Assembly: GCA_951406725.2 (NCBI GenBank)
Contig: OX597833.1
Span: 57,040,001-57,104,000 of the forward strand
Direction: 5' to 3'
From: Octopus vulgaris
Taxonomy: Eukaryota
Length of the DNA stretch: 64,000 bases
Shown here: positions 6,891 through 41,911 of the stretch, piece by piece
Layout: each line of letters begins with the position of its first letter
Numbering within the stretch: position 1 is the stretch's first letter
Notes under the pieces: generated by a model
The model's database searches: none
What the model saw: the letters and a program-made list of their open reading frames with translations, nothing else
Told to the model about the DNA's origin: nothing
Program-made: the position numbers and the translations under genes

Positions 6891-9099
6891 CAAATATACA
6901 TATATGTATGGGTCAAAGAGACAGACCACTGTCTCATATCTGCAATATATAACTCGTCAATTAATCACACAGCAGGCTCCTTCACCATCTGTTGATCTGC
7001 AAGGTGTAGCTAGATATGTTAGAAATAGTGACCATGTCTCCTTCAATCCACAAACATCCCTATATAAGTATCCATATCTGCAATAAATCAAAGAGAGAGA
7101 CGTGTGTGTATGTGTGCGTACATACACACAGATATATATGTGTGTGTATTACAATGTTTTTGTGTGTGCGAGAGAGGTATAAAAAGGAAGAAGAGAGAGG
7201 GAAAGAGTAAAAGCTACCGACTGATACATGCTACATTTGTAGACATACTCATGTGTGAAGGGCCCCAAACACATCCACGCTTATAACCAAAACTGTATGT
7301 GGTCTTCTGTTTGCAACCATGGCGATAAACCAAGTTTATCGAACAACTAAAGAAAAAACTATTTTACCTAACCGCAGAAATATCTAGAAAATATTCTCAA
7401 ACATTTTAATAGCAACACACTTTAAGTCTTACTGAAATAGCGAGTTTGTAACTGTATTCCCTTGACATAGCTTTGAGTACATCTTGAGAAATCTTAATTT
7501 CGTGTTCGTTATTTTTATTGTTACTTAATGTCGCATTCTCTTTTCAGTCATACAGTTTTTTTCCACTGAAATATTCTCTGAATGTATCGAGAATGAAGTA
7601 TATGTTACCAGTTGGGGCCTTCTCCTTCAGGTTTCCTCTCCTGAAAAGAGTTCGTAGGGGTAGAGGAACACAGCCGTACTCCTAGTAACTATGTTATAGT
7701 ACCAACCAGCTTGTTATGGATTCAAAGGTACATAAAACACCCACCATAAACATCGAAAAACAAGATGATAAGGATGCTCTGTCAGTCCCTGACACACATA
7801 TTCCCTACCCTCTTATTCACCGCAGACAATTGAAAGAGACAAAATTATTTGAAACGAAGTCTAGAGAAACCGTTATGGCTATATCATGACGCCATGATTA
7901 ACAAATCTTAACAACACTTATACACAAACGTTTATACACAATACACATGCTATATGAGAAAATGCCATTACATTTTACGAAGCATCAAACAATAATGCTT
8001 CAAATATGTATATTTAATATTTTTTTAAGTATAAAGATTAGAATATATGTGCAACAAGGATATTATTGTCTGATCCAATTTGTAGTAAAGACGCAACAGA
8101 CATTTGCAATGGCGTTAGAGAAAAAATAAATTCTGCATATAACTCAAAAATAATCTGCTGGTGTCATTACTGTACTGGATTAAACAATGGTGTCTTTGTT
8201 AAAAATATATATTATAAATATTAAAAGCGTCGTTAAATAAGCATATTTTGAAGCTGATATGGCATCATGGTTCAGTTGACTGACTTCGTAATATGAAGAA
8301 AGAGAGCATCGCCATTTTAGTTCAAAATATGAACAAAATATTTCTAAGTACGATATTCTTTTATTAGTCTCAGTCATTTAATTGTAACCATGCTGGGGTA
8401 CAAACCTTAAGAGATCTTTTTAAGGCAATCATTCTTGTTTTAGTTAACCCTTATTTTACGCACAACATATAACCTTTATAACTTTTGTATTTTTTTGGAA
8501 TTTTCAGAGAATTTATGCGAATTTGCATTGTACACCCAAGAATTCACACAATTACGCAAAAAAATGGGAGGGGAGGGGATTTAAGTGGCTGATGGGCACA
8601 AGCAGCAGAACACAGCGTCAGCACACATGCTTTCGCGTAGAATATATCTGGTGTATTAATATAGTTTTCCAAGCTGAATATCTGAAGATATTTCTTTAAA
8701 GTTTGCAAATTCTGAGTAATTATAGCCAATCGAAAAGCCACAGACACATTGGTGCCTGCTTCCATTGTAACAAGCGAAGCTGTAGTCTGCTTAGAACTAC
8801 CACCATGTGTTTTTATTTACTTGTATATTTTCTTTGACGACAATCTAATGGCTGAAACAAGTAAAAGATTATTATTATTATTATTATTATTATTATGGGT
8901 TTTTCCACGAGTAACCTTTCGAAGCTCCTCCCCCCTATTGGGAGTTTTTATTTGTTATATTTTCGTTATTATCTTGCATTTTTACACGGACTTTTCAAAC
9001 AGACAAAACCCCTTTTGTAACTTTCGTCCTGTATTTTGTCCTTACATATATTATTTGATTTTTGTTAGCCAATAAACGAATTAATTATTATTATTGTTA

Positions 9100-9148
<49 letters not shown>

Positions 9149-9150
<2 letters not shown>

Positions 9151-9565
9151 GTTTGACTTTTGCTTTATATTTGTACAAGTTGGCTCCAAGTCTCACCCAG
9201 AGACCTCAAGAGACAACAGGTTGGAAGTTCACATTGTTGTTATGCCTAGTGTGCCATATATTTGGTTGTTTTTTGTGTTGTACTAGTGGATGTCTAAAAA
9301 AGAAAACATGTTTGTTTTAAACCTTGAGATTACATAGAAAGTATTTTGCGTAGGATATGAGCAGTTCCCATGAGCACTATCTTTTGAATTTCTGCCATTT
9401 TGGGGTTTCCTGGTATCTGAGTTAGGTAGCAATCAGTCCCTTTTGCTATCATTCCCAGGGCACCTATGACAACAGGTATTGTTTTAGTCTTCAGGTTCCA
9501 CATTTCGCTGATTTCTATTTCAAGATCTTTATATTTGCTCAGTTTTTGGTAGGTCTTGACAGATA
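9149..9565 (-). mobile_element. 5'-truncated R4/Dong-clade non-LTR retrotransposon (RLE C-terminus plus 3' UTR) in a (TAA)n tract
   Basis: Minus frame SVKTYQKLSKYKDLEIEISEMWNLKTKTIPVVIGALGMI...IQKIVLMGTAHILRKILSM* (stop 9330-9332). Flanked on both sides by (TTA)n. Confidence 0.8.
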
Positions 9566-9596
9566 TTATTATTATATTATTATATTATCTTGACAG

Positions 9597-9653
<57 letters not shown>

Positions 9654-10253
9654 TTTTTTTTTTTGTGCATGCCTGGGATCCAAAAATGTTTTGGAAGCTC
9701 TTACAAGCCTACTCTCTGCTCTACTCCTGTCATTACATCAAAATCAGATCTATTAGCAGCTTTTTCTATATTTAATCGCGCCATTAGTATTGAAAGAGTG
9801 GATAAGCAATAATGGAGATTAATTTAAAGATACTTATGAACGACGTGGTCAAAACGTGATTTATTTTGCATTTTTGTTTATTTCTTCTCAGATAATTTCT
9901 AAATTACATTGCAATAGTTTGTGCTATTTTAAACTATAGTTTAAAATAACCTCGATTTATTGAAAATATTTATTTTTGAAAGCTGTGTGTAAAACATTCG
10001 GTAGTAATTTACAACTAAGATAATAAAAAATGCAGAAAGCTTTCATTTTCTCTGGATCCGTTTTCTATAAAGTTGCTAACCTTGAACCCTGCAACGAACT
10101 AGCATCCCTCTTAAGGGGAGTGCTGTAATCTCGGCCTCATGATAGAGCCTCAGCGTGCTAGATGTAGTACCCAAATCTTCCTCAAATTGTATCCAGTCAA
10201 CTTAAATAAGGAACAATACTTTGGATGATGTAGATTTAAGATATACTATGTAT

Positions 10254-10541
10254 GGATCTTTTCGGTTTGAACGGCAGTTTTTAACATAATTTCTAGGTAA
10301 CTAAAAAATTTTAAACTTCGTATACTGGTAGAATGGGATCTTTTCCTTTTGAACGGCAGCTTTCAACACAATTTCTAGTTAACTAAACACTTTTAAACTT
10401 CGAATACTGGTAGAATGTGTTTATAAAACATCATTTTTTTTTTTTTTGCTATATTGAGAAAATTCTATAGTTTGTAACATATTTCCACTTTAAAATCGAG
10501 TATTTCGGCAATTTTAACCGACGTTCAAAAGGAAAAGATCC
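10254..10541. mobile_element. Merlin-like MITE fragments (an ~82-bp truncated end joined to a related short copy)
   Basis: Ends GGATCTTTTC(GG/CT)TTTGAACGGCAG ... GTTCAAAAGGAAAAGATCC; same family as 12475-12875. Confidence 0.7.
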
Positions 10542-10639
10542 TTTTTCTGTTTTATTTACTTTGTTTAAAAAAAATTATTTATTTTGTGTTTTATTTACTT
10601 TGCTAGGTAGTTATAGGATCGACTAGTCACGACTAGCTA

Positions 10640-10847
10640 GCATGGATGCGCGAGTACGCGAGTGCGCGCACCGGGACCACTCTTTTTAAGTAGTACCGTG
10701 ACGTAATAGGTCATGCGCAGAGAGTGACGTCAGGTGAACAAGCAGGAAATTGGAGAGGCCTTATTTGGGGCTCAGGGACTGGGAATCGCTCAGCAAGTAC
10801 AAATCAGCGTTTGAGGAATTTCTTTCGAAGTCGTTTCCCAGATTAAG
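10640..10847 (+). promoter_or_regulatory. CpG-rich promoter/enhancer with CRE, Ets and CArG sites, followed by a 5' splice donor
   Basis: TGACGTAA 10699-10706, CATGCGCA 10712-10719, TGACGTCA 10725-10732, CAGGAAAT 10743-10750, CCTTATTTGG 10759-10768 and AAG|GTAAGA at 10847/10848. CpG cluster in non-repetitive sequence. Confidence 0.6.
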
Positions 10848-10924
10848 GTAAGAGACATCAACATCTATTCCTTTAATACCCACAAGAGGCTAAACACAGA
10901 GAGTACAAACAAGGACATCGTCAA

Positions 10925-11570
10925 AATCCCTTAACTGATGCAGCCAGTCGCTGGGTGTCACTCGAGACATTTTTTCATAGTCAGTCGTTGCCACTGGTCT
11001 CTCTTCTCTGACATTCGTAGCAAGTTCGCTGTGTTATGACCTGTCCAGTCCTTGATGTTGTCTAACCAAAATTTTCTCTGTCTGCCTCTCTTTTGCCCTC
11101 TCTCAACTATTCCCTGAAGAATGGTTTTGAACAGGGGAGTTTTGGCGGGATACATGACGGTACCAGGCAAGCTTCCGTCTATTTACCCGCGCAAGGAATG
11201 GTTTTGGCGGGATACATGACCGTACCAGGCAAGCTTTCGTCTATTTACCCGCGCAAGGAATGGTTTTGGCGGGATACATGACGGTACCAGGCAAGCTTTC
11301 GTCTGTTTACCCGCGCAAGGAATGGTTTTGGCGGGATTCATGACGGTACCAGGCAAGCTTTCGTCTTTTTATCCGCGCAAGGAATGGTTTTGGCGGGATA
11401 CATGACCGTACCAGGCAAGCTTTCGTCTATTTACCTGCGCAAGGAATGGTTTTGGCGGGATACATGACCGTACCAGGCAAGCTTTCGTCTTTTTACCCGC
11501 GCAAGGAAAGGTATTTCTTGACTTGCTGCCTGACAAAGCTGTTCATTTTGTGTTCTATCCTTTAACCCTC
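10925..11570 (-). mobile_element. RTE-clade LINE 3' fragment (second family) with an internal minisatellite
   Basis: Frameshifted RVKRRKLAWYGHV...KTILQGIVERGQKRGRQRKFWLDNIKDWTG, the typical RTE C-terminus. Confidence 0.8.
11141..11512. repeat. 62-bp minisatellite, ~6 copies
   Basis: TTTGGCGGGA recurs at 11141, 11203, 11265, 11327, 11389 and 11451. Confidence 0.95.
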
Positions 11571-11799
11571 ACACATGAATCAAAATGATATCTAAGAGAG
11601 ACAGAACACATTGCAGGATATCCTCCAAAAAATGCTTCGGTCTGCATTTGTCGTTGGCCAGTTGGTTAATACAGTTGTTGTCGAAAACTTGCCATTTATA
11701 TTGGTGTAGTTTTGCTAAACGTAAACTCGGAAATCTTTTCATCGTGACTTTCAAGTTCGGTTATGAATAATAATTGCCATAGTTATATAATGAGCAAGA

Positions 11800-12031
11800 A
11801 GGCGGCGAGCTGGCAGAATCGTTAGCATGCCGGGCGAAATGCTTTGTGGTATTTTGTCCGCCTCTGCGTTCTGAGTTCAAATTCCGCCGAGGTCGACTTT
11901 ACCTTTCATCCTTTCGGGGTCGATAAACTAAGTAACCGTTACGCACTGGGGTTAATCTAATCAACTTAAGCTGTTTGTCTGTACTTGTTTGTCCCCTCTA
12001 TGTTCAGCCCCTTGTGGGCAATAAAGAAATA
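11800..12031 (+). mobile_element. SINE family B
   Basis: Full-length copy with TSD ATAGTTAT(A/G)TAATGAGCAAG. Confidence 0.9.
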
Positions 12032-12292
12032 GTTATGTAATGAGCAAGTTATTGATGGATAAAATGGATTTTTGTTTTCTTTCTGAAAAAAAAAAATATA
12101 CCCTTAAAAATAATCAATTACACTTTTGAAACGTATCTCTAGAAAACTCCGTTTAAAATATGCCTTATTTAAGAAAGTTAATGAAAGGGCATTAAATTGT
12201 AGACATGCCAAAAAATAATACAAAAGGGAGCAAGAATTCATAAATTGCCGAACTTGCTGGTCTTGTGCTAAAATTTGAAGCCAGTTTTAAAT

Positions 12293-12919
12293 TAGGGTTC
12301 CTCAACCACAAGGCCATCTGGATCATTTGGCATCGGGCCGCACAGAAAATAAATTTTAAAATTTTATTTCTATTTTGTTAATGATCGCAGTCTGCAGGGT
12401 GTTTTTGCATTGTATGTTATACATTTTATTCAGTTTTTGATACGCATGTGATCCCCCGGTACGTGAGAAAATTGGGATCTTTTCGGTTTGAACGGCAGTT
12501 TTTAACATAATTTCTAGGTAACTAAAAAATGTTAAACTTCGTATACTGGTAGAATGTGTTTATAAAACATCTTTTTCTCTTGGCTTTATTGAGAAAATTC
12601 TATAGCTTGTAAGATATTTGTTGTTTTATTTTCTTCAATTTCTGCAATTTCAATCAATCAGTGACCGTCTATTGAGGTTAAAAAAACATTATGTGCCGTA
12701 TGAATATGTCCCTCATTTAAGAAACAGATTGGGTTTATTTACATTTGTGAAGAAAAAAGATACCCTTACCCCACCCCTAACCCTGAAACAGATTGAAAAG
12801 CAATAGATCGATACTATGGGTGACAATTTCATATGACACCGCTAGAAAAAACTGCCGTTCAAACCGAAAAGATCCGAAAATTGTCTTGCATGAAAGTGGT
12901 CTGTGGTTGAGGACAGCTA
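12293..12919. mobile_element. Degenerate hAT-like MITE hosting the Merlin-like MITE
   Basis: Ends TAGGGTTCCTCAACC ... GGTTGAGGACAGCTA; TSD not recognisable. Confidence 0.5.
12475..12875. mobile_element. Complete Merlin-like MITE (401 bp)
   Basis: Perfect TIRs GGATCTTTTCGGTTTGAACGGCAGTTTTT and an 8-bp TSD GAAAATTG (12467-12474, 12876-12883). GG termini with an 8-bp TSD fit the Merlin superfamily. Confidence 0.8.
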
Positions 12920-13522
12920 AATGTTTGTAGATTTAGTTATTAGTTTACATTATACTAAAAATAAATATTGTAAGTTCAAAAGCACGGACGATTTTAAAAC
13001 GTATCTAAAAAAAAAAAAGTTTGGAAAACTAACAGACCTAATCTGACTTATCTTACAGAATTCGTCAACTTAAGCCATCTGAATAATCTAGATTGCTCAA
13101 ATATTGATTGCCTTAGTCCATTTCCATCTATGAATAATTCGTTAACTGTCCAATTTTAGTATTTGCAAGAAAAAAAAAACAAACGAAAAAAATATCTTCG
13201 GGATATAATGTATAACAGGGGAAAAATACATTAAGATATGATATATTTATGATACATAGGAATAAAATCATGGACGATGCGTCTACTGTTTTAATATCTA
13301 AAATGAATATTTTTTTTTCATTTTCCTTGCGTGCGAGTTAAGATTCTTACGGAGACAGCAAATGGCAATAATTACACGACTGGAACCAATGCTTAGGCGA
13401 TCCTTCATATTGCAACCGTAAACAACAACAACAACAACAAAAAAATGAAAACATAAACGTCTTTAACATTTTGATAAATTTAAAGAACAAAACCCCTCTC
13501 GATTTTCGAGCGGAAAAAACTC

Positions 13523-13845
13523 GGATCTTTTCGGTTTGAACGGCAGTTTTTTCTAGCGGTGTCATATGAAATTGTCACCCATAATTATGACCCTAGTATC
13601 GATCTATTGCATTTCAATCTGTGTTAGGGTTAGGATTAGGGGTGGGGAGAAGGGTATCTTTTTTCTTCACAAATGTAAATAAACCCAATCTGTTTCTTAA
13701 ACGAGGGACATATTCATACGGCACAGAATGTTGTTTACCTCAATGGACGTCATTGATTGGTTGAAATTGCAGAAATTGAAGAAAAGAGACAACAAATATC
13801 TTACAAATTATAGAATTTTGTCAATAAAGCCAAGAGAGAAAGACA
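13523..13845. mobile_element. Truncated copy of the Merlin-like MITE in inverted orientation
   Basis: Reverse complement of ~12565-12875; one TIR is retained. Confidence 0.85.
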
Positions 13846-14075
13846 TGCCACAAAGGACTTTATTTCCTGGGAAATGGAGGTGGTTAGCGAAACCTCGATC
13901 TTCCCTCCTGTTTCTTTATTAGCCACAAGGGCCCAAACATAGAGGGGTACAATACAGCCTGATTGGGATCAGACACACAATGATTATATGACTTTTAAAA
14001 TTTTACAAAATATAATGAAATCGAATGAGATACAACAAAGACAAAATACAAACATGAAATGAAGCAGAGGGATGG

Positions 14076-15915: not shown

Positions 15916-16091
15916 TACATATGGTTGGAAAGTGAACTTCTAAACCACACAGCCATGCCTGCACATATCACCAATTTGCAAGTTACAACGCACTAGCAAT
16001 ATGTATTTTTAACATGCAAATAACCATGTGATGCATGTTTCCTCTCCATGTATGGTTGGCTGTTTGATTCCTCATCAGGTTTTATTTTCAG

Positions 16092-16173
16092 TCCTGCTGG
16101 GTGTCCACAACGCTCTTCATAAAACAACCTCAAGTCATGAGGCTGTTTTAGTCATTGACCATCCATCCATGAG
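16092..16173 (+). other. Candidate internal exon (82 nt; 5' UTR or non-coding, ends in ATG-AG)
   Basis: Acceptor GTTTATTTTCAG| and consensus donor GAG|GTAAGT in unique sequence. One frame is open (LLGVHNALHKTTSSHEAVLVIDHPSM). Confidence 0.5.
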
Positions 16174-17364
16174 GTAAGTTACACTGAAGTACATTAAGTC
16201 TATTCTATTTTTCGTGCCTTTGTGGCAAATATAGAAATAATCATTTTTCTGTTATGATATATTTAGTAATTATATTTGTTTGTTATTTTCTTCATCTATG
16301 TTTTTATTTTATTTGTTTTCCTAATTAGAATTTGGTTAATAACTGGCTCTTTGTCGAAGTCTTATGAAAGAAAATTTCCGTCTATTCTTAGGATCAGGTA
16401 AAAAGTTTTTCTATTTTTCAAAAAAAAAAAAATCAATATGTCTGGTTGGGTTTCTTTTATATGAAGGTCTGATTAAAAATGGCTTTATTTTTAATGATGT
16501 CGAAGAATGTCTGCACAAATTTTTGTACGAATTCTGGTCGAGTATTTATAACAACAACAAAAAAATTATCATAGTTGGTAAAAAGATTCTTGTGTGATGG
16601 TAATTACTGTTTTGCTAACATATCCGAGTACATTTCATTATTTATTTATATAAGAAAAATATTAAAAATATAGTTTTCACAAACTTTACTTCCTCGAAGA
16701 CATATTTGCTGAAGACTTGGAATTTTATTCTTTGAACAATTTGATTTCTCTTTGATTTTATGCCACTGTCTGTTAAAGTTGTGTGGCAGAGAACAGTGTT
16801 TATCTTTACCGAAATCTCTCAGACGTTGACAAGCAACTAAACATATTCAATATCTGCTTAATTGATTGATTCAATAACATTTTATTCCACTTAGCAAACA
16901 TGGTTTTTTTTCTTCTTTCATGAAAGTTAAAAGACATGAAAAAATGAAAATAAAAAGATGAAATGAAAGAAATAAAATAAAATAAACAACTTCCTTTATG
17001 TCAGTGGAAGTTATGAAAGGAATACAACTTATTCTCAACTATCTTTAGCCACAATTTTCATTGAACTATGACAGCTCTAAGAAACAGGCACAGAAAATAG
17101 GTGGAAAGTCTCATAGCTTTTGGTGGGGAGAGTGAGTCTTGTGATCTATTGGAATTTTTGTGGCAGCATTGAAGATTTTATCTCTTTGTAGTGTATCAAA
17201 GAAAAAAAAGTCTGCATGGCAGATTTTTTTTTAAGCTGAATCACTTCTGGAGTGATATTCTAACTCAACATTGTAAACTATAAAACATTTGTCAATTGTA
17301 CATAATGAATTTGTTGCTTTATGAAGTTGTTTGAGTGTTGAAAGTTTTTGGGCTATTATTACAC

Positions 17365-21240: not shown

Positions 21241-22883
21241 TCACTTGTCCTGCCTGGTCTTCTCACGTACAGAATATTTCCAAAGGTCTCGGTCGCTGGT
21301 CATTTCCTCAGTGAGGCCTAAAGTTCGAAGGTCGTGCTTCACCACCTCGTCCCAGGTTTTCCTGGGTCTACCTCTTCCACGGGTTCCCTCAACTGCTAGG
21401 GATTGGCACTTTCTCACACACCTATCTTCATCCATTCTCGCCACATGACCATACCAGCGCAATCGTCTCTCTTGCACACCACAACTGATGCTTCTTAGGT
21501 ACAACATTTCTCTCAAGGTGCTAACGCTCTGTCGAGTATGTACACTGACATTACACATCCAACGGAGCATACTGGCTTCATTCCTCACGAGCTTACGCAT
21601 GTCCTCAGCAGTCACGGCCCATGTTTCGCTGCCATGTAGCATGGCTGTTCGTACACACGCATCATACAGTCTGCCTTTTACTCTGAGCGAGAGGCCTTTA
21701 GTCACCAGCAGAGGTAAGAGCTCCCTAAACTTTGCCCAGGCTATTCTTATTCTAGCAGTTACACTTTCAGCGCACCCACCACCACTACTGACTTGGTCAC
21801 CTAGATAACGGAAGCTATCAACTACTTCTAGTTTTTCCCCCTGGAAAGTGACGGAAGTTGTTTTCTGCAGATTTTCGGAGGTTAATGCTCCCGAGCATCT
21901 GCCACATACAAAAACTATCTTCCCAGTTAGCCTACCTTTGACATTGCTGCACCTCTTATGTGTCCATAGCTTACACTGGGTACATCTTATAGAGTTTCTA
22001 TCTACACCTTTTCTACAGATCGAGCAGGGCCATCTTCCTGAAGACATTTGTGGATTGTCTACCTTCCTACTTATTAGTACTTTGGTTTTAGCTAGGTTGA
22101 CTCTAAGGCCCCTTGATTCTAAACCCTCCTTCCACACCTGGAACTTCTCCTCCAGTTCTGATAGTGACTCAGCAATAAGAGCAAGGTCGTCAGCGTAGAG
22201 GAGCTCCCAGGGACAGCCTGTCTTGAATTCCTCCGTAATTGCCTGGAGTACTATGATAAATAGGAGGGGGCTGAGTACTGAACCCTGGTGGACCCCAACC
22301 TCTACTTTGAATTCTTCTGTGTACATGTTGCCAACCCTAACCTTACTTACGGCATCTCTGTACATGGCTTGCACAGTCCTCACCAGCCATTCATCTATCC
22401 CTAGTTTCCTCATTGACCACCAGATAAGGGATCGGGGGACCCTATCAAAAGCTTTCTCCATGTCAACGAAAGCCAGGTACAGGGGCTTATCTTTGGCTAG
22501 GTATTTCTCCTGCAGCTGCCTTACCAGGAATATAGCATCAGTGGTACTTTTCCCTGGCACGAACCCAAACTGCATCTCATCTAAACTAACTCTCTCTCTA
22601 ATTAGTTGGGCTATGACCCTCTCCGTAACCTTCATTACTTGATCCAACAGCTTGATACCTCTGTAATTATTTGTATCTAGGGCATCACCTTTACCTTTGT
22701 AGCAGTTGACTAGTATGCTGCTGCACCAGTCATTGGGTATGACTCCTTCGTGTATCACCTGGTTGACTATACAGGTGACTAGGTTATAGCCGACACTGCC
22801 AGATATTTTGAGCATCTCTGCAGTAATTCCTGATGGGCCTGGGGCTTTCCCTGTCTTCATGCTTCTAATTGCCTTAGCTACCA
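21241..22883 (-). CDS. RTE reverse transcriptase, N-terminally truncated, with a PHD-like zinc finger
   Basis: Motifs GKAPGPSG, NYRGIKLL, QFGF, FVDMEKAFD, GVHQGSVLSP, LLYADD, FRYLG, RLRWYGHV and GRGRPRKTW; no stop over ~547 codons. The track's start codon lies in flanking DNA. Confidence 0.93.
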
Positions 22884-22934
22884 ATATAAATAAAATGGAC
22901 AAGGAACAGGTTGCTAAGCCATCTGTTGCTTGCC

Positions 22935-22976
<42 letters not shown>

Positions 22977-23078
22977 CCTTTTTAAAAAGGTTCCTACCAA
23001 TAATGGTTATATTTCCATACCGAAATCTACCCGGAAATAATTGTTGATTTTGAAATTAATAATTATTTACCCTTATAT

Positions 23079-30992: not shown

Positions 30993-31821
30993 CATATATA
31001 TATATAAGGCAACTGCCTCGATACTGTTAGGTTGTTGTTTTCTATTTAACTAAACCCTTGCACTTAACAATTCTAACTTCTACTAATCCTTTAGCTTCGA
31101 TCCTTCTTTGCCAAGTTTCAAAATACTGTGGGTTTGCTTGTTTTTTTCTTTTCAGATTCTTTATAATCTACTTAGCCAAGGGAATAATTAACTTGTCTTC
31201 TTGAACTTGATAAAATTCAATATTTCTGAAAATAGTCTTTTAAAGCCCTGCTAAATCTTTCCTTCTCTTCATTACATTACATTAATGGTTTTATTTACTA
31301 TTTTTTTTGCTTGATTTTTCGCTGTTATATTGTAACATTTCTCTTCTTCCATTAGGCGACCACTTTTGTTTAATTCAGCTTGATCTGGCTCAAAACATCC
31401 CATTCATTCGTTCAGGCAACAACTTCTCTTAGTAATATTTCCCTACTTGTTTCTTTGCATTAAGTGCAATAACATCCAAAATAATTTCAGACACGACTTC
31501 CCAACCATTATGGCATCAAAGCAAAATGCAAATTGGTGGGAATCTATGAATGGCAAGATAAAATTTGGAGAGATATTTACAGATAAGCAATAAGCATAAT
31601 GTTAAATTTTGATTACAGGTTAAGCAAAAGGATATCATTTGATCTCAGTTAACAGCAAAACAATTTACTTTAGTTGCATTTAATAGCAAAATGATCTTCT
31701 CCAGTTGTAAATAAGGCAAAATGTATTTCCTTTGTGATTAAGGCAAAATTGTGTATTCTTGTTGCTGTTAAACCTTTTGTTACCATATTTCTGTTGAAAT
31801 ACACTCCCTTTGTTTCAGTTA

Positions 31822-34863: not shown

Positions 34864-36315
34864 CTATAAAACAGCAGAGACAGCAGTTCCACTTACTCTG
34901 TGGATGTTGTGGCTATTAGGTGGTCTGCTTCTGTTGGGATCTTCAGGACCATTTAATTTTTGTTCCATGAAGGAAGATGTTTCACTCGACGTGTCATCAA
35001 TATAGCGCAAGTCATCAATACTTTCATACACAGGGTACTGAGTGTTGGAGGAATGCGTCTCTATGGAGCTTTGACTGCTGGAGCTGTTATTTTTGAGTAT
35101 GCCTTTAGAATGGCACTTTGCAGACATCTGTGAGATTCGATTAAATTGAGTTCGGATTGGCGTTGTACTGGAATATGTGCTATTTGTTAGCCCAGGGGCT
35201 TTTGATGTCATCAGGGAAGTGACATCAGCATATCTCATCTCTGGTTCTCGGGTTGTTGAAGAACCATGAAGACTGAGTAAAGTAGAGTTACTGCTGTATT
35301 TTGGTTCAAATATTGGCGTGGAAATATCTGCAGGAGTAATCTTTGTAGTGGTATAGTTGCTCAAATTGGTTGTTAGAGGTTTTTGCGTGATGAGAGGGCT
35401 TGAAAACGACACCATTGATGAACTACTATTGTTCTGAGCTGGTGAAGAACGTATGCTGGTTGCTGGGCTTTTGTACGTTGGGATTCTTTGAGCTGTGGCA
35501 TAATGAGGTTGGGCATGCATTGCTATGTATTTTGGAGGATTAGAAGGGCTGTTGTTTAAATTATTCCTCTGTTGGCTGGTTTTGAGTGTTTTGTATGGTG
35601 ATGATTGTGGAAAACGGTTTTCGGATGAGAAATGCGGATTGGTTAGGACTTTGCTGTAACAGGCTGTTGTTGTAGGTAACTCCTTAGTTTGAGAGGTACT
35701 TTGGACATAGATGTCTTCATCTGCTGGGTTTATTTCATCTGACAAATCCACATTGAATTGTGTTTCTGTAATTTGTGGAATGGGCATGAAGGTTGACTTA
35801 CTCCGGCGGAAAGTATTTGGAGGATCCCGTGTAAAATCCGAAATGTCTCCAAGAAGCTTTTCTGAACTTTTATTTGTCTCTTCCTCCTCCTCTTCTTCCA
35901 TTTCCTCATCATGACTGTCAGGTCGACTGAAATCAAAATGAAGTGTCTGACTGTTAGTCTTAGGTCTTGGCGGTTTGATGCCACAAGAGACCAACTCCAG
36001 GTCTTTGTCAATGGTCTTTTCTGATTTTGTGATTGCTGTTTTGCGTTCAACCTGCCGCGTTCCGAGTTTAGGAAAGCTGAAGGTCTTTGCTGACAATAGT
36101 GGCCGGTTCCATACCAGCCGTCTATTTTCATGGTAACGTTCCGATGACTTTAACAATCCAAAATTAGGCAAGCACGATGATCTTTTCGGAGACTGAAGTT
36201 TTAAGTCTTCCATGCAGCAGGGCATGGCGCATGGATGACCAGAGGCCTCATGGTGGCTCTTCTGAGGTGTCCGACAGCAGTGTGTTTGGTGATGGCTTTC
36301 TCCAGGTTTCTGATG
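34864..36315 (-). CDS. Large 3'-terminal coding exon (483 codons plus stop) of an unidentified host gene; Ser/Thr/Pro/Asn-rich, probably disordered cytoplasmic tail
   Basis: Acceptor GTTTATTGTATTTTTTAG| at 36316/36315, phase 0, extends the 453-aa ORF by HQKPGESHHQTHCCRTPQKSHHEASGHPCA. 1.45 kb of open, repeat-free frame ending ...VSGTAVSAVL*. Confidence 0.85.
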   Translation of the reverse strand, partial: HQKPGESHHQTHCCRTPQKSHHEASGHPCAMPCCMEDLKLQSPKRSSCLPNFGLLKSSERYHENRRLVWNRPLLSAKTFSFPKLGTRQVERKTAITKSEKTIDKDLELVSCGIKPPRPKTNSQTLHFDFSRPDSHDEEMEEEEEEETNKSSEKLLGDISDFTRDPPNTFRRSKSTFMPIPQITETQFNVDLSDEINPADEDIYVQSTSQTKELPTTTACYSKVLTNPHFSSENRFPQSSPYKTLKTSQQRNNLNNSPSNPPKYIAMHAQPHYATAQRIPTYKSPATSIRSSPAQNNSSSSMVSFSSPLITQKPLTTNLSNYTTTKITPADISTPIFEPKYSSNSTLLSLHGSSTTREPEMRYADVTSLMTSKAPGLTNSTYSSTTPIRTQFNRISQMSAKCHSKGILKNNSSSSQSSIETHSSNTQYPVYESIDDLRYIDDTSSETSSFMEQKLNGPEDPNRSRPPNSHNIHRVSGTAVSAVL

Positions 36316-41191: not shown

Positions 41192-41790
41192 CGCGAAAGT
41201 GTGACTGCGCATGCGCGAAAAGTGTAACTGCGCATACGCGAACGTGTTTGGTAGCTTTCAACTAACACTATCTCCTCCGAGACCCTGCAGCACAGGTTGA
41301 CCAAAATTGAGAGTATGATAGAAGAAGGCTTACTCTTCCTTCCGTAGAAATTCAAAATTCAAATTGGACCATGTTAACACCAAAAATTATTTACATCAGA
41401 AAGGTGCCTCTTTTCCAATAAAAATCCCTACTTTTTACGATTTTTTTTACTGCTGTGTCGCATGCGCGAATGTGTGACTGCGCATGTGCGAACCTGTGAC
41501 TGCGCATGCGTGAACGTGTTCGTGCGCATGCACATTCACACGTTCGCGCATGCGCAGTCACACGTTCGCGTATGCACAGTCACACTTTCGTGCATGCGCA
41601 GTCACACGTCCACGCATGCGCAGTCACATGTTCACGCATGCGCAGTTACACTTTCGCGCATGCGCATGCACAAGTACGCGCATGCGCACGCACACGTTCG
41701 CGCATGCGCACACACAAGTACGTGCATGCGCACGCACACGTTCGCGCATGCGCATTCACAATTTCGCGCATGCGCAGTCACACGTTCGCA
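41192..41790. repeat. TGCGCATGCGCA-rich ~20-22-bp repeat arrays flanking an internal Helitron segment (41248-41460)
   Basis: Unit GCGAACGTGTGACTGCGCAT switches to its reverse complement near 41525. The central part matches 62907-63115. Confidence 0.85.
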
Positions 41791-41911
41791 CATAGATAGA
41801 TAGATAGATATATAGATAGATAGATATATAGATAGATAGATACATACATAGATAGATAGATACATAGATAGATAGATATATAGATAGATAGATATATAGA
41901 TAGATAGATAC

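Follow-up and report, generated by a model that had tools for sequence, protein, structure and literature searches.

The window, by which we mean the whole 64-kb stretch of DNA analyzed in this study, consists of repeat-rich animal DNA with 104 tandem-repeat rows. Only one host-gene exon was identified in it, the final coding exon of an Ig/FN3 gene of the nephrin-like type on the minus strand. The sequence of this exon is 100% identical to the Octopus vulgaris nephrin-like X1 protein, while identity amounts to 99% for O. sinensis (LOC115221265), 92% for O. bimaculoides (LOC106874759) and 71% for Argonauta. Because of the complete identity to the O. vulgaris protein, the window is regarded as octopus DNA. 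This single exon of 483 codons encodes a Ser/Thr-rich tail, which is found in Octopus and Argonauta proteins and in which no Pfam family was detected. No further exons of the gene are present in the 64-kb window, and its promoter lies beyond the right window end, more than 53 kb from the element described below, which sits 24 kb past the stop codon.

This element is a 216-bp segment (10640-10855) harboring two CRE/ATF sites and a CArG box, with the full motif cluster occupying exactly 70 bp (10699-10768). The features of the element and its surroundings are as follows, in window coordinates.

10254-10484, plus strand: fragments of a MITE (small inverted-repeat transposon), left boundary, with 87-99% matches to 12473-12619
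10640-10689, unstranded: CpG-densest block, CGCG-rich, with 7 CpG and a GC content of 0.60 in 50 bp versus 1 CpG in 10740-10789
10661-10666, minus strand: candidate initiator CGCACT, matching the BBCABW consensus, which would place +1 at 10663, 27 nt from where the TATA variant starts
10683-10690, minus strand: TATA variant CTTAAAAA, 8 bp beyond the proximal CRE, 5.98 of 12.6 bits with an approximate matrix
10699-10706, unstranded: CRE/ATF variant TGACGTAA, the proximal CRE for the minus strand and one of two CRE/ATF 8-mers in 64 kb
10712-10719, unstranded: weak, partial NRF1-like site CATGCGCA, with 16 occurrences in the window and found in 496 of 100,000 local shuffles
10725-10732, unstranded: perfect palindromic CRE TGACGTCA, the sole perfect CRE in 64 kb
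10743-10750, plus strand: Ets/TCF-like site CAGGAAAT, located 8 bp ahead of the CArG box and not informative by itself
10759-10768, unstranded: CArG box CCTTATTTGG, one of four CArG boxes in the window
10776-10853, plus strand: candidate short exon with donor AAG/GTAAGA (10.8 bits), exon end at 10847, acceptor before 10776 weak (5.7)
10858-10925, minus strand: SINE-like 3' tail, right boundary, matching nine other places in the window
up to 11512, minus strand: likely LINE 3' remnant, right boundary beyond the SINE-like tail, recognized by translation, with a weak tblastn match (E 0.11) to the window's own reverse-transcriptase ORF
16079 or 16092 to 16173, plus strand: exon-like piece 1, unique DNA, donor GAG/GTAAGT (12.1 bits), with an ATG just before the piece
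16329-16397, plus strand: exon-like piece 2, unique DNA, frame compatible with piece 1 by eye
34864-36315, minus strand: last coding exon of the nephrin-like gene, the nearest known gene

The insertions bounding the element look younger, and the SINE-like tail begins 10 bp after the candidate exon end. In the surrounding DNA, a complete 401-bp MITE is located at 12475-12875. Its inverted ends begin with GGGATC/GGATC, and it is flanked by a target duplication of 8 bp (GAAAATTG); partial copies are present at 10254-10484 and 13521-13843. The 8-bp duplication and the GG ends suggest that this MITE may belong to the Merlin or hAT group. A 62-bp tandem array of six copies (11139-11512) represents a duplicated piece of the likely LINE 3' remnant, corresponding to the reverse-transcriptase C-terminus and lying on the minus strand, while 21241-23055 (minus strand) contains a 604-codon non-LTR retrotransposon frame encoding a reverse transcriptase with a weak internal PHD-finger match.

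The motifs, their spacing, the composition and the local uniqueness of the segment were observed directly. All motif identities and positions given in the initial annotation proved exact, with the motifs spanning 70 bp and the perfect CRE confirmed. The window's only two CRE/ATF 8-mers both fall within the element, 26 bp apart, and adjoin the CArG box. The NRF1-like site that had been proposed is present, but CATGCGCA matches only part of the NRF1 consensus and is common in the window. The CArG box fits the consensus CC(A/T)6GG as given in the available text of PMC10175305. The Ets site beside it, previously interpreted as completing a serum response element, exists at a distance of 8 bp and fits the TCF site (C/A)(C/A)GGA(A/T) (PMC516031, available part), yet an Ets-like site appeared in 60,353 of 100,000 shuffles. 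Similarly, the small CpG island holds in composition, with a GC content of 0.50, 15 CpG and a CpG o/e of 1.15 (0.53 for the window), and the segment qualifies under the island rule (at least 200 bp, GC at least 0.5, o/e at least 0.6), but it is one of 19 such segments in the window. Since octopus methylation is located mainly in gene bodies (PMC9476566, available part), a CpG island would also mean less here than in vertebrates. The Ets and NRF1 calls are almost uninformative, and neither they nor the "CpG island" strengthen the case much. Elsewhere in the window, a 22-bp tandem array at 41459-41793 is dense in GCGCATGCG (NRF1-type) words and forms its CpG-richest part.

No Rfam match was found over the element. 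One sub-threshold match fell within 8000-14000, away from the element, and the 80 sub-threshold matches over the window, none of them over the element, were nearly all miRNA models on simple repeats. A structured RNA or miRNA precursor was rejected, with no long stable hairpin detected (best of seven folds z -2.5, three short hairpins).

Each arm of the element carries one promoter-like feature. On the minus strand the order is CArG, CRE, CRE, TATA variant and initiator, with the TTAAAAA described in the initial annotation located at 10689-10683 and the CpG peak at the end of the element with the predicted minus-strand start. A TATA box and initiator 26-33 nt apart occurred in 89 of 20,000 shuffles of that arm. 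The TATA variant is weak, scoring less than half of the maximum, and its 27 nt fall short of the usual TATA-to-start distance of 30-31 nt. The plus arm exhibits no pair of TATA box and initiator. Its donor, correctly placed in the initial annotation, lies 79 bp past the CArG box and ranks among the top three plus-strand donors of the window by a rough matrix; a donor of this strength was present in 177 of 20,000 shuffles of the plus arm. The features of the two arms are of similar rarity (0.5-1% of shuffles), in agreement with the ambiguous direction stated previously; these values derive from arm tests chosen after seeing the sequence, and all scoring matrices are approximations.

For the main direction we lean toward the minus strand over the plus strand, about 3:2. 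The c-fos and Egr1 promoters read SRE, CRE, TATA in order, to which the order CArG, CRE, CRE, TATA would correspond. In the somatostatin and tyrosine hydroxylase promoters, 8-9 bp separate a CRE from the TTTAAA-type box that follows it, and in the element the CRE is positioned 8 bp before a T-T-A-A-A-type TATA variant, which likewise favors the minus strand; unlike these two promoters, the element adds a second CRE and a CArG box, and its proximal CRE is the TGACGTAA variant. The lean is also based on the free left side, while a plus-strand gene would hit the nephrin-like gene within 24 kb; rightward of the element there is no recognizable domain before that gene. Both arms would be used if the element serves a divergent pair.

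No exon of an immediate-early gene (Egr zinc finger, bZIP, nuclear receptor) was recognized in the window, and no Pfam family reached the curated cut-off in 208 frames of at least 42 aa from non-repeat segments. These represent 208 of 218 frames, with the remaining ten overlapping the nephrin-like exon, and the scope of the scan was exons of 42 aa or more within the window. The pieces at 16079-16397 are possible downstream exons of a plus-strand transcript. For 16079-16173, no protein relatives were found at E<=10 among longer proteins, where only one candidate was scored; its atlas hits were all under 0.9 and Pfam returned nothing, while 16329-16397 gave sub-threshold Pfam hits only. Another exon candidate was noted by eye near 33.2 kb. 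The 36-residue plus frame of the element itself produced four hits among 1.84 billion representatives, each of them matching a repetitive protein in several stretches; PDB, Pfam and the atlas yielded none.

The explanation we tentatively favor, with a probability of roughly 0.45, is that the element represents a signal-responsive RNA polymerase II promoter of the CREB/SRF type. Transcription would start chiefly on the minus strand, at about 10663, and lead into a target gene not recognized in the window. The two CREs would be bound by CREB/ATF dimers responding to cAMP or calcium, and the CArG box by an SRF dimer responding to MAPK signaling via TCF on the nearby GGAA or, alternatively, to Rho-actin signaling via MRTF (SRF cofactors are covered in PMC7925694, available part). 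Acting together, much as CREB and SRF do within roughly 100 bp of the Arc enhancer (PMC4005930, available part), these factors would bring polymerase to the CTTAAAAA box located 8 bp beyond the proximal CRE. The donor at 10847 would mark the end of a short first exon in a divergent plus-strand transcript, which is probably non-coding. Binding, transcription, direction and inducibility of the element are predictions from sequence; the promoter reading is supported by a segment that is unique in the window, bounded by insertions and free of solo-LTR or terminal-inverted-repeat signatures in the ends examined.

If working at all, the element would work like an SRE plus CRE promoter of the EGR1/FOS type. 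Its CArG box is identical to the 10-mer quoted for human EGR1 CArG boxes (PMC10175305, available part), and a candidate GGA-core site lies nearby, as in the EGR1/FOS promoters, for which spacing and orientation are flexible (PMC516031, available part). A further likeness is that its CREs are close by, in the minus-strand order CArG, CRE, CRE, TATA. In contrast to EGR1/FOS, the element has one CArG box rather than several and a non-consensus TATA box, no Egr, Fos or other recognizable coding exon is present in its window, and it is known here from sequence alone. With regard to the immediate-early-type module proposed in the initial annotation, the CRE-CRE-CArG core is real, this specific combination unlikely to arise by chance and the flanks promoter-like, but no immediate-early exon lies in the window. 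Since no such gene was found nearby, the element cannot be filed as an immediate-early promoter. CREs answer many signals. The neuronal-activity responsiveness proposed previously is unsupported, as nothing tested points to neurons and SRF also drives cytoskeletal and muscle genes (PMC516031, available part).

The strongest competitor of the promoter reading, although an unlikely one, is that the segment is the promoter piece of a low- or middle-copy transposon, in which case the CREs and the CArG box would have come along and need not serve a host gene. Consistent with such an origin, the surrounding DNA is dense in transposons, with a MITE directly on one side of the element and a SINE/LINE tail on the other, and the pattern CRE-N10-35-CRE-N15-40-CArG occurs at 83 metagenome loci and one viral locus, 43 of which form one dispersed family mostly sharing only a core of about 430 bp. 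This family (L020:2731-3165 and 42 related loci), dispersed over marine metagenome contigs, is a repeat of about 430 bp that has an internal inverted repeat and carries two or more perfect CREs together with a CArG-consensus box, mostly CCAAATTTGG. A consensus TATA box was found downstream in one of the 43 loci examined and on the opposite side in two. Because the same grammar is present in this unrelated dispersed repeat, CRE-CRE-CArG does not prove a gene promoter. The repeat resembles the octopus element in having two CREs and then, at a comparable distance, a box of the CArG consensus, but it is multicopy, its box is mostly a different one, and there is no sequence homology, none of the 84 loci matching the element at E<1. 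The octopus segment was also present in one copy only, self-BLAST revealing no second copy within the 64-kb window, in line with the uniqueness claimed in the initial annotation. A solo LTR was rejected, since none of 48 end pairs combined TG...CA ends with a target duplication of 4, 5 or 6 bp, and so was a MITE, with no terminal inverted ends of at least 7 bp; in both cases the left ends were tried over part of the flank. In a sequencing-run word search with 10485-10860, 20 of the 24 listed runs held part of the 40 sampled words and none held half, whereas a high-copy repeat should turn up in many runs. Eight runs (seven studies, three organism labels) held 0.20-0.33 and 12 held 0.10-0.17 of the words, and no RNA run was among the holders listed; the query included the end of the MITE-like piece, and the result is not taken as conservation or expression.

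Among the other loci with this pattern, L003 (2940-3170, minus strand) and L011 are 83% alike over 392 bp. Both contain CRE, CRE and CCTTATTTGG, in L003 with a consensus TATA box 43 bp past CCTTATTTGG in plus-strand order, and they look like true promoters. The gene they would serve was not recognized. No Egr, bZIP or nuclear-receptor family was detected in 223 frames from 34 of the 84 loci, and as these 34 loci gave no immediate-early family, the pattern loci do not settle direction. The sole viral match (L084:2001-2087) is located on a contig of 226 kb, where 10 CRE sites fall within 4 kb, and presumably resembles a cytomegalovirus-type immediate-early enhancer.

Less probable than a transposon origin is a chance cluster in neutral DNA, chosen post hoc from many motif combinations. 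Neither 100,000 dinucleotide shuffles of the segment nor 240 window-equivalents of Markov sequence produced two CRE/ATF 8-mers and a CArG box within 80 bp, and the Poisson estimate for such a cluster is 7-8e-6 per window. At 8e-6 per window, about 250,000 windows scanned would give about two clusters, but one octopus genome (about 2.7 Gb, or some 42,000 windows) expects only about 0.3. In an open test with 38 textbook factor motifs, the element scored 7.58 and 71 of 300 simulated windows held an 80-bp stretch as good, which favors chance; another real non-tandem stretch, 31515-31581, outscores the element. An earlier version of this test that placed the element first outside tandem arrays included two element-tailored motifs and was discounted. 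The strength of the cluster depends on CRE+CRE+CArG being a grammar fixed beforehand, given how often simulated windows reach its score in the open test: as a fixed grammar it is more than chance, as the result of an open search not clearly so. The Ets site and the CpG island are common, in line with a chance cluster, while the extra promoter-like feature on each arm, each at 0.5-1%, argues against a chance cluster.

Also improbable is a distal signal-responsive enhancer without an mRNA of its own, similar to the SARE of Arc, that would act on the nephrin-like gene or on a gene to the left of the window, with the donor and the TATA variant being incidental or serving enhancer RNAs. Compact modules of CREB and SRF/TCF sites act as enhancers (PMC4005930, available part), and the element shares with the SARE the packing of such sites into about 100 bp. 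The weak TATA box and the lack of a coding exon nearby fit this possibility as well. In contrast to the SARE, however, no MEF2 consensus was among the hits in the 80-bp core, and the element has two CREs and core-promoter-like features on both sides; moreover, the nephrin-like promoter is far off, past the right window end, and an enhancer would not need a top-ranking donor.

It is very unlikely that 10776-10847 is instead a 72-nt internal exon of a plus-strand gene, with the motifs being incidental intron sequence and the CArG box doubling as a pyrimidine tract: AG/GT ends, a length that is a multiple of three, one open frame and the further exon-like pieces at 16079-16397 are compatible with such an exon, but its acceptor is weak, its 36-residue frame has no true relative even though the collections searched include proteins of O. 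vulgaris, O. sinensis and O. bimaculoides, and the two CREs would be left unexplained.

In octopus, egr1 and creb rise after training (10.1101/2025.10.16.682951, available part), and egr1 has been used as an activity marker (PMC9712504 and 10.1101/2025.10.16.682951, available parts). The word "promoter" occurs 0 times in the main text of the latter study (10.1101/2025.10.16.682951). In the literature searched, which mostly excluded subscription papers, we found no description of a cephalopod stimulus-responsive promoter or of this locus and no mention of the locus IDs, and the available parts of two papers on mollusc immediate-early genes (PMC6584072, PMC4259342) contain no promoter anatomy for comparison.

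The element is likely a candidate addition to the textbook class of CREB/SRF promoters, and because this grammar is textbook, confirmation would be of use without coming as a surprise. A more far-reaching version, which we consider quite improbable, is a bidirectional activity-induced promoter of an undescribed transcript pair, one member of which would be a spliced non-coding RNA with exon 1 ending at 10847 and more exons at about 16.1-16.4 kb. If true, it would provide a compact native CREB/SRF module of about 150 bp and the first cephalopod activity-reporter promoter. Should the promoter we favor be functional, it would show vertebrate CRE plus CArG logic in a cephalopod and offer a small candidate for activity reporters.
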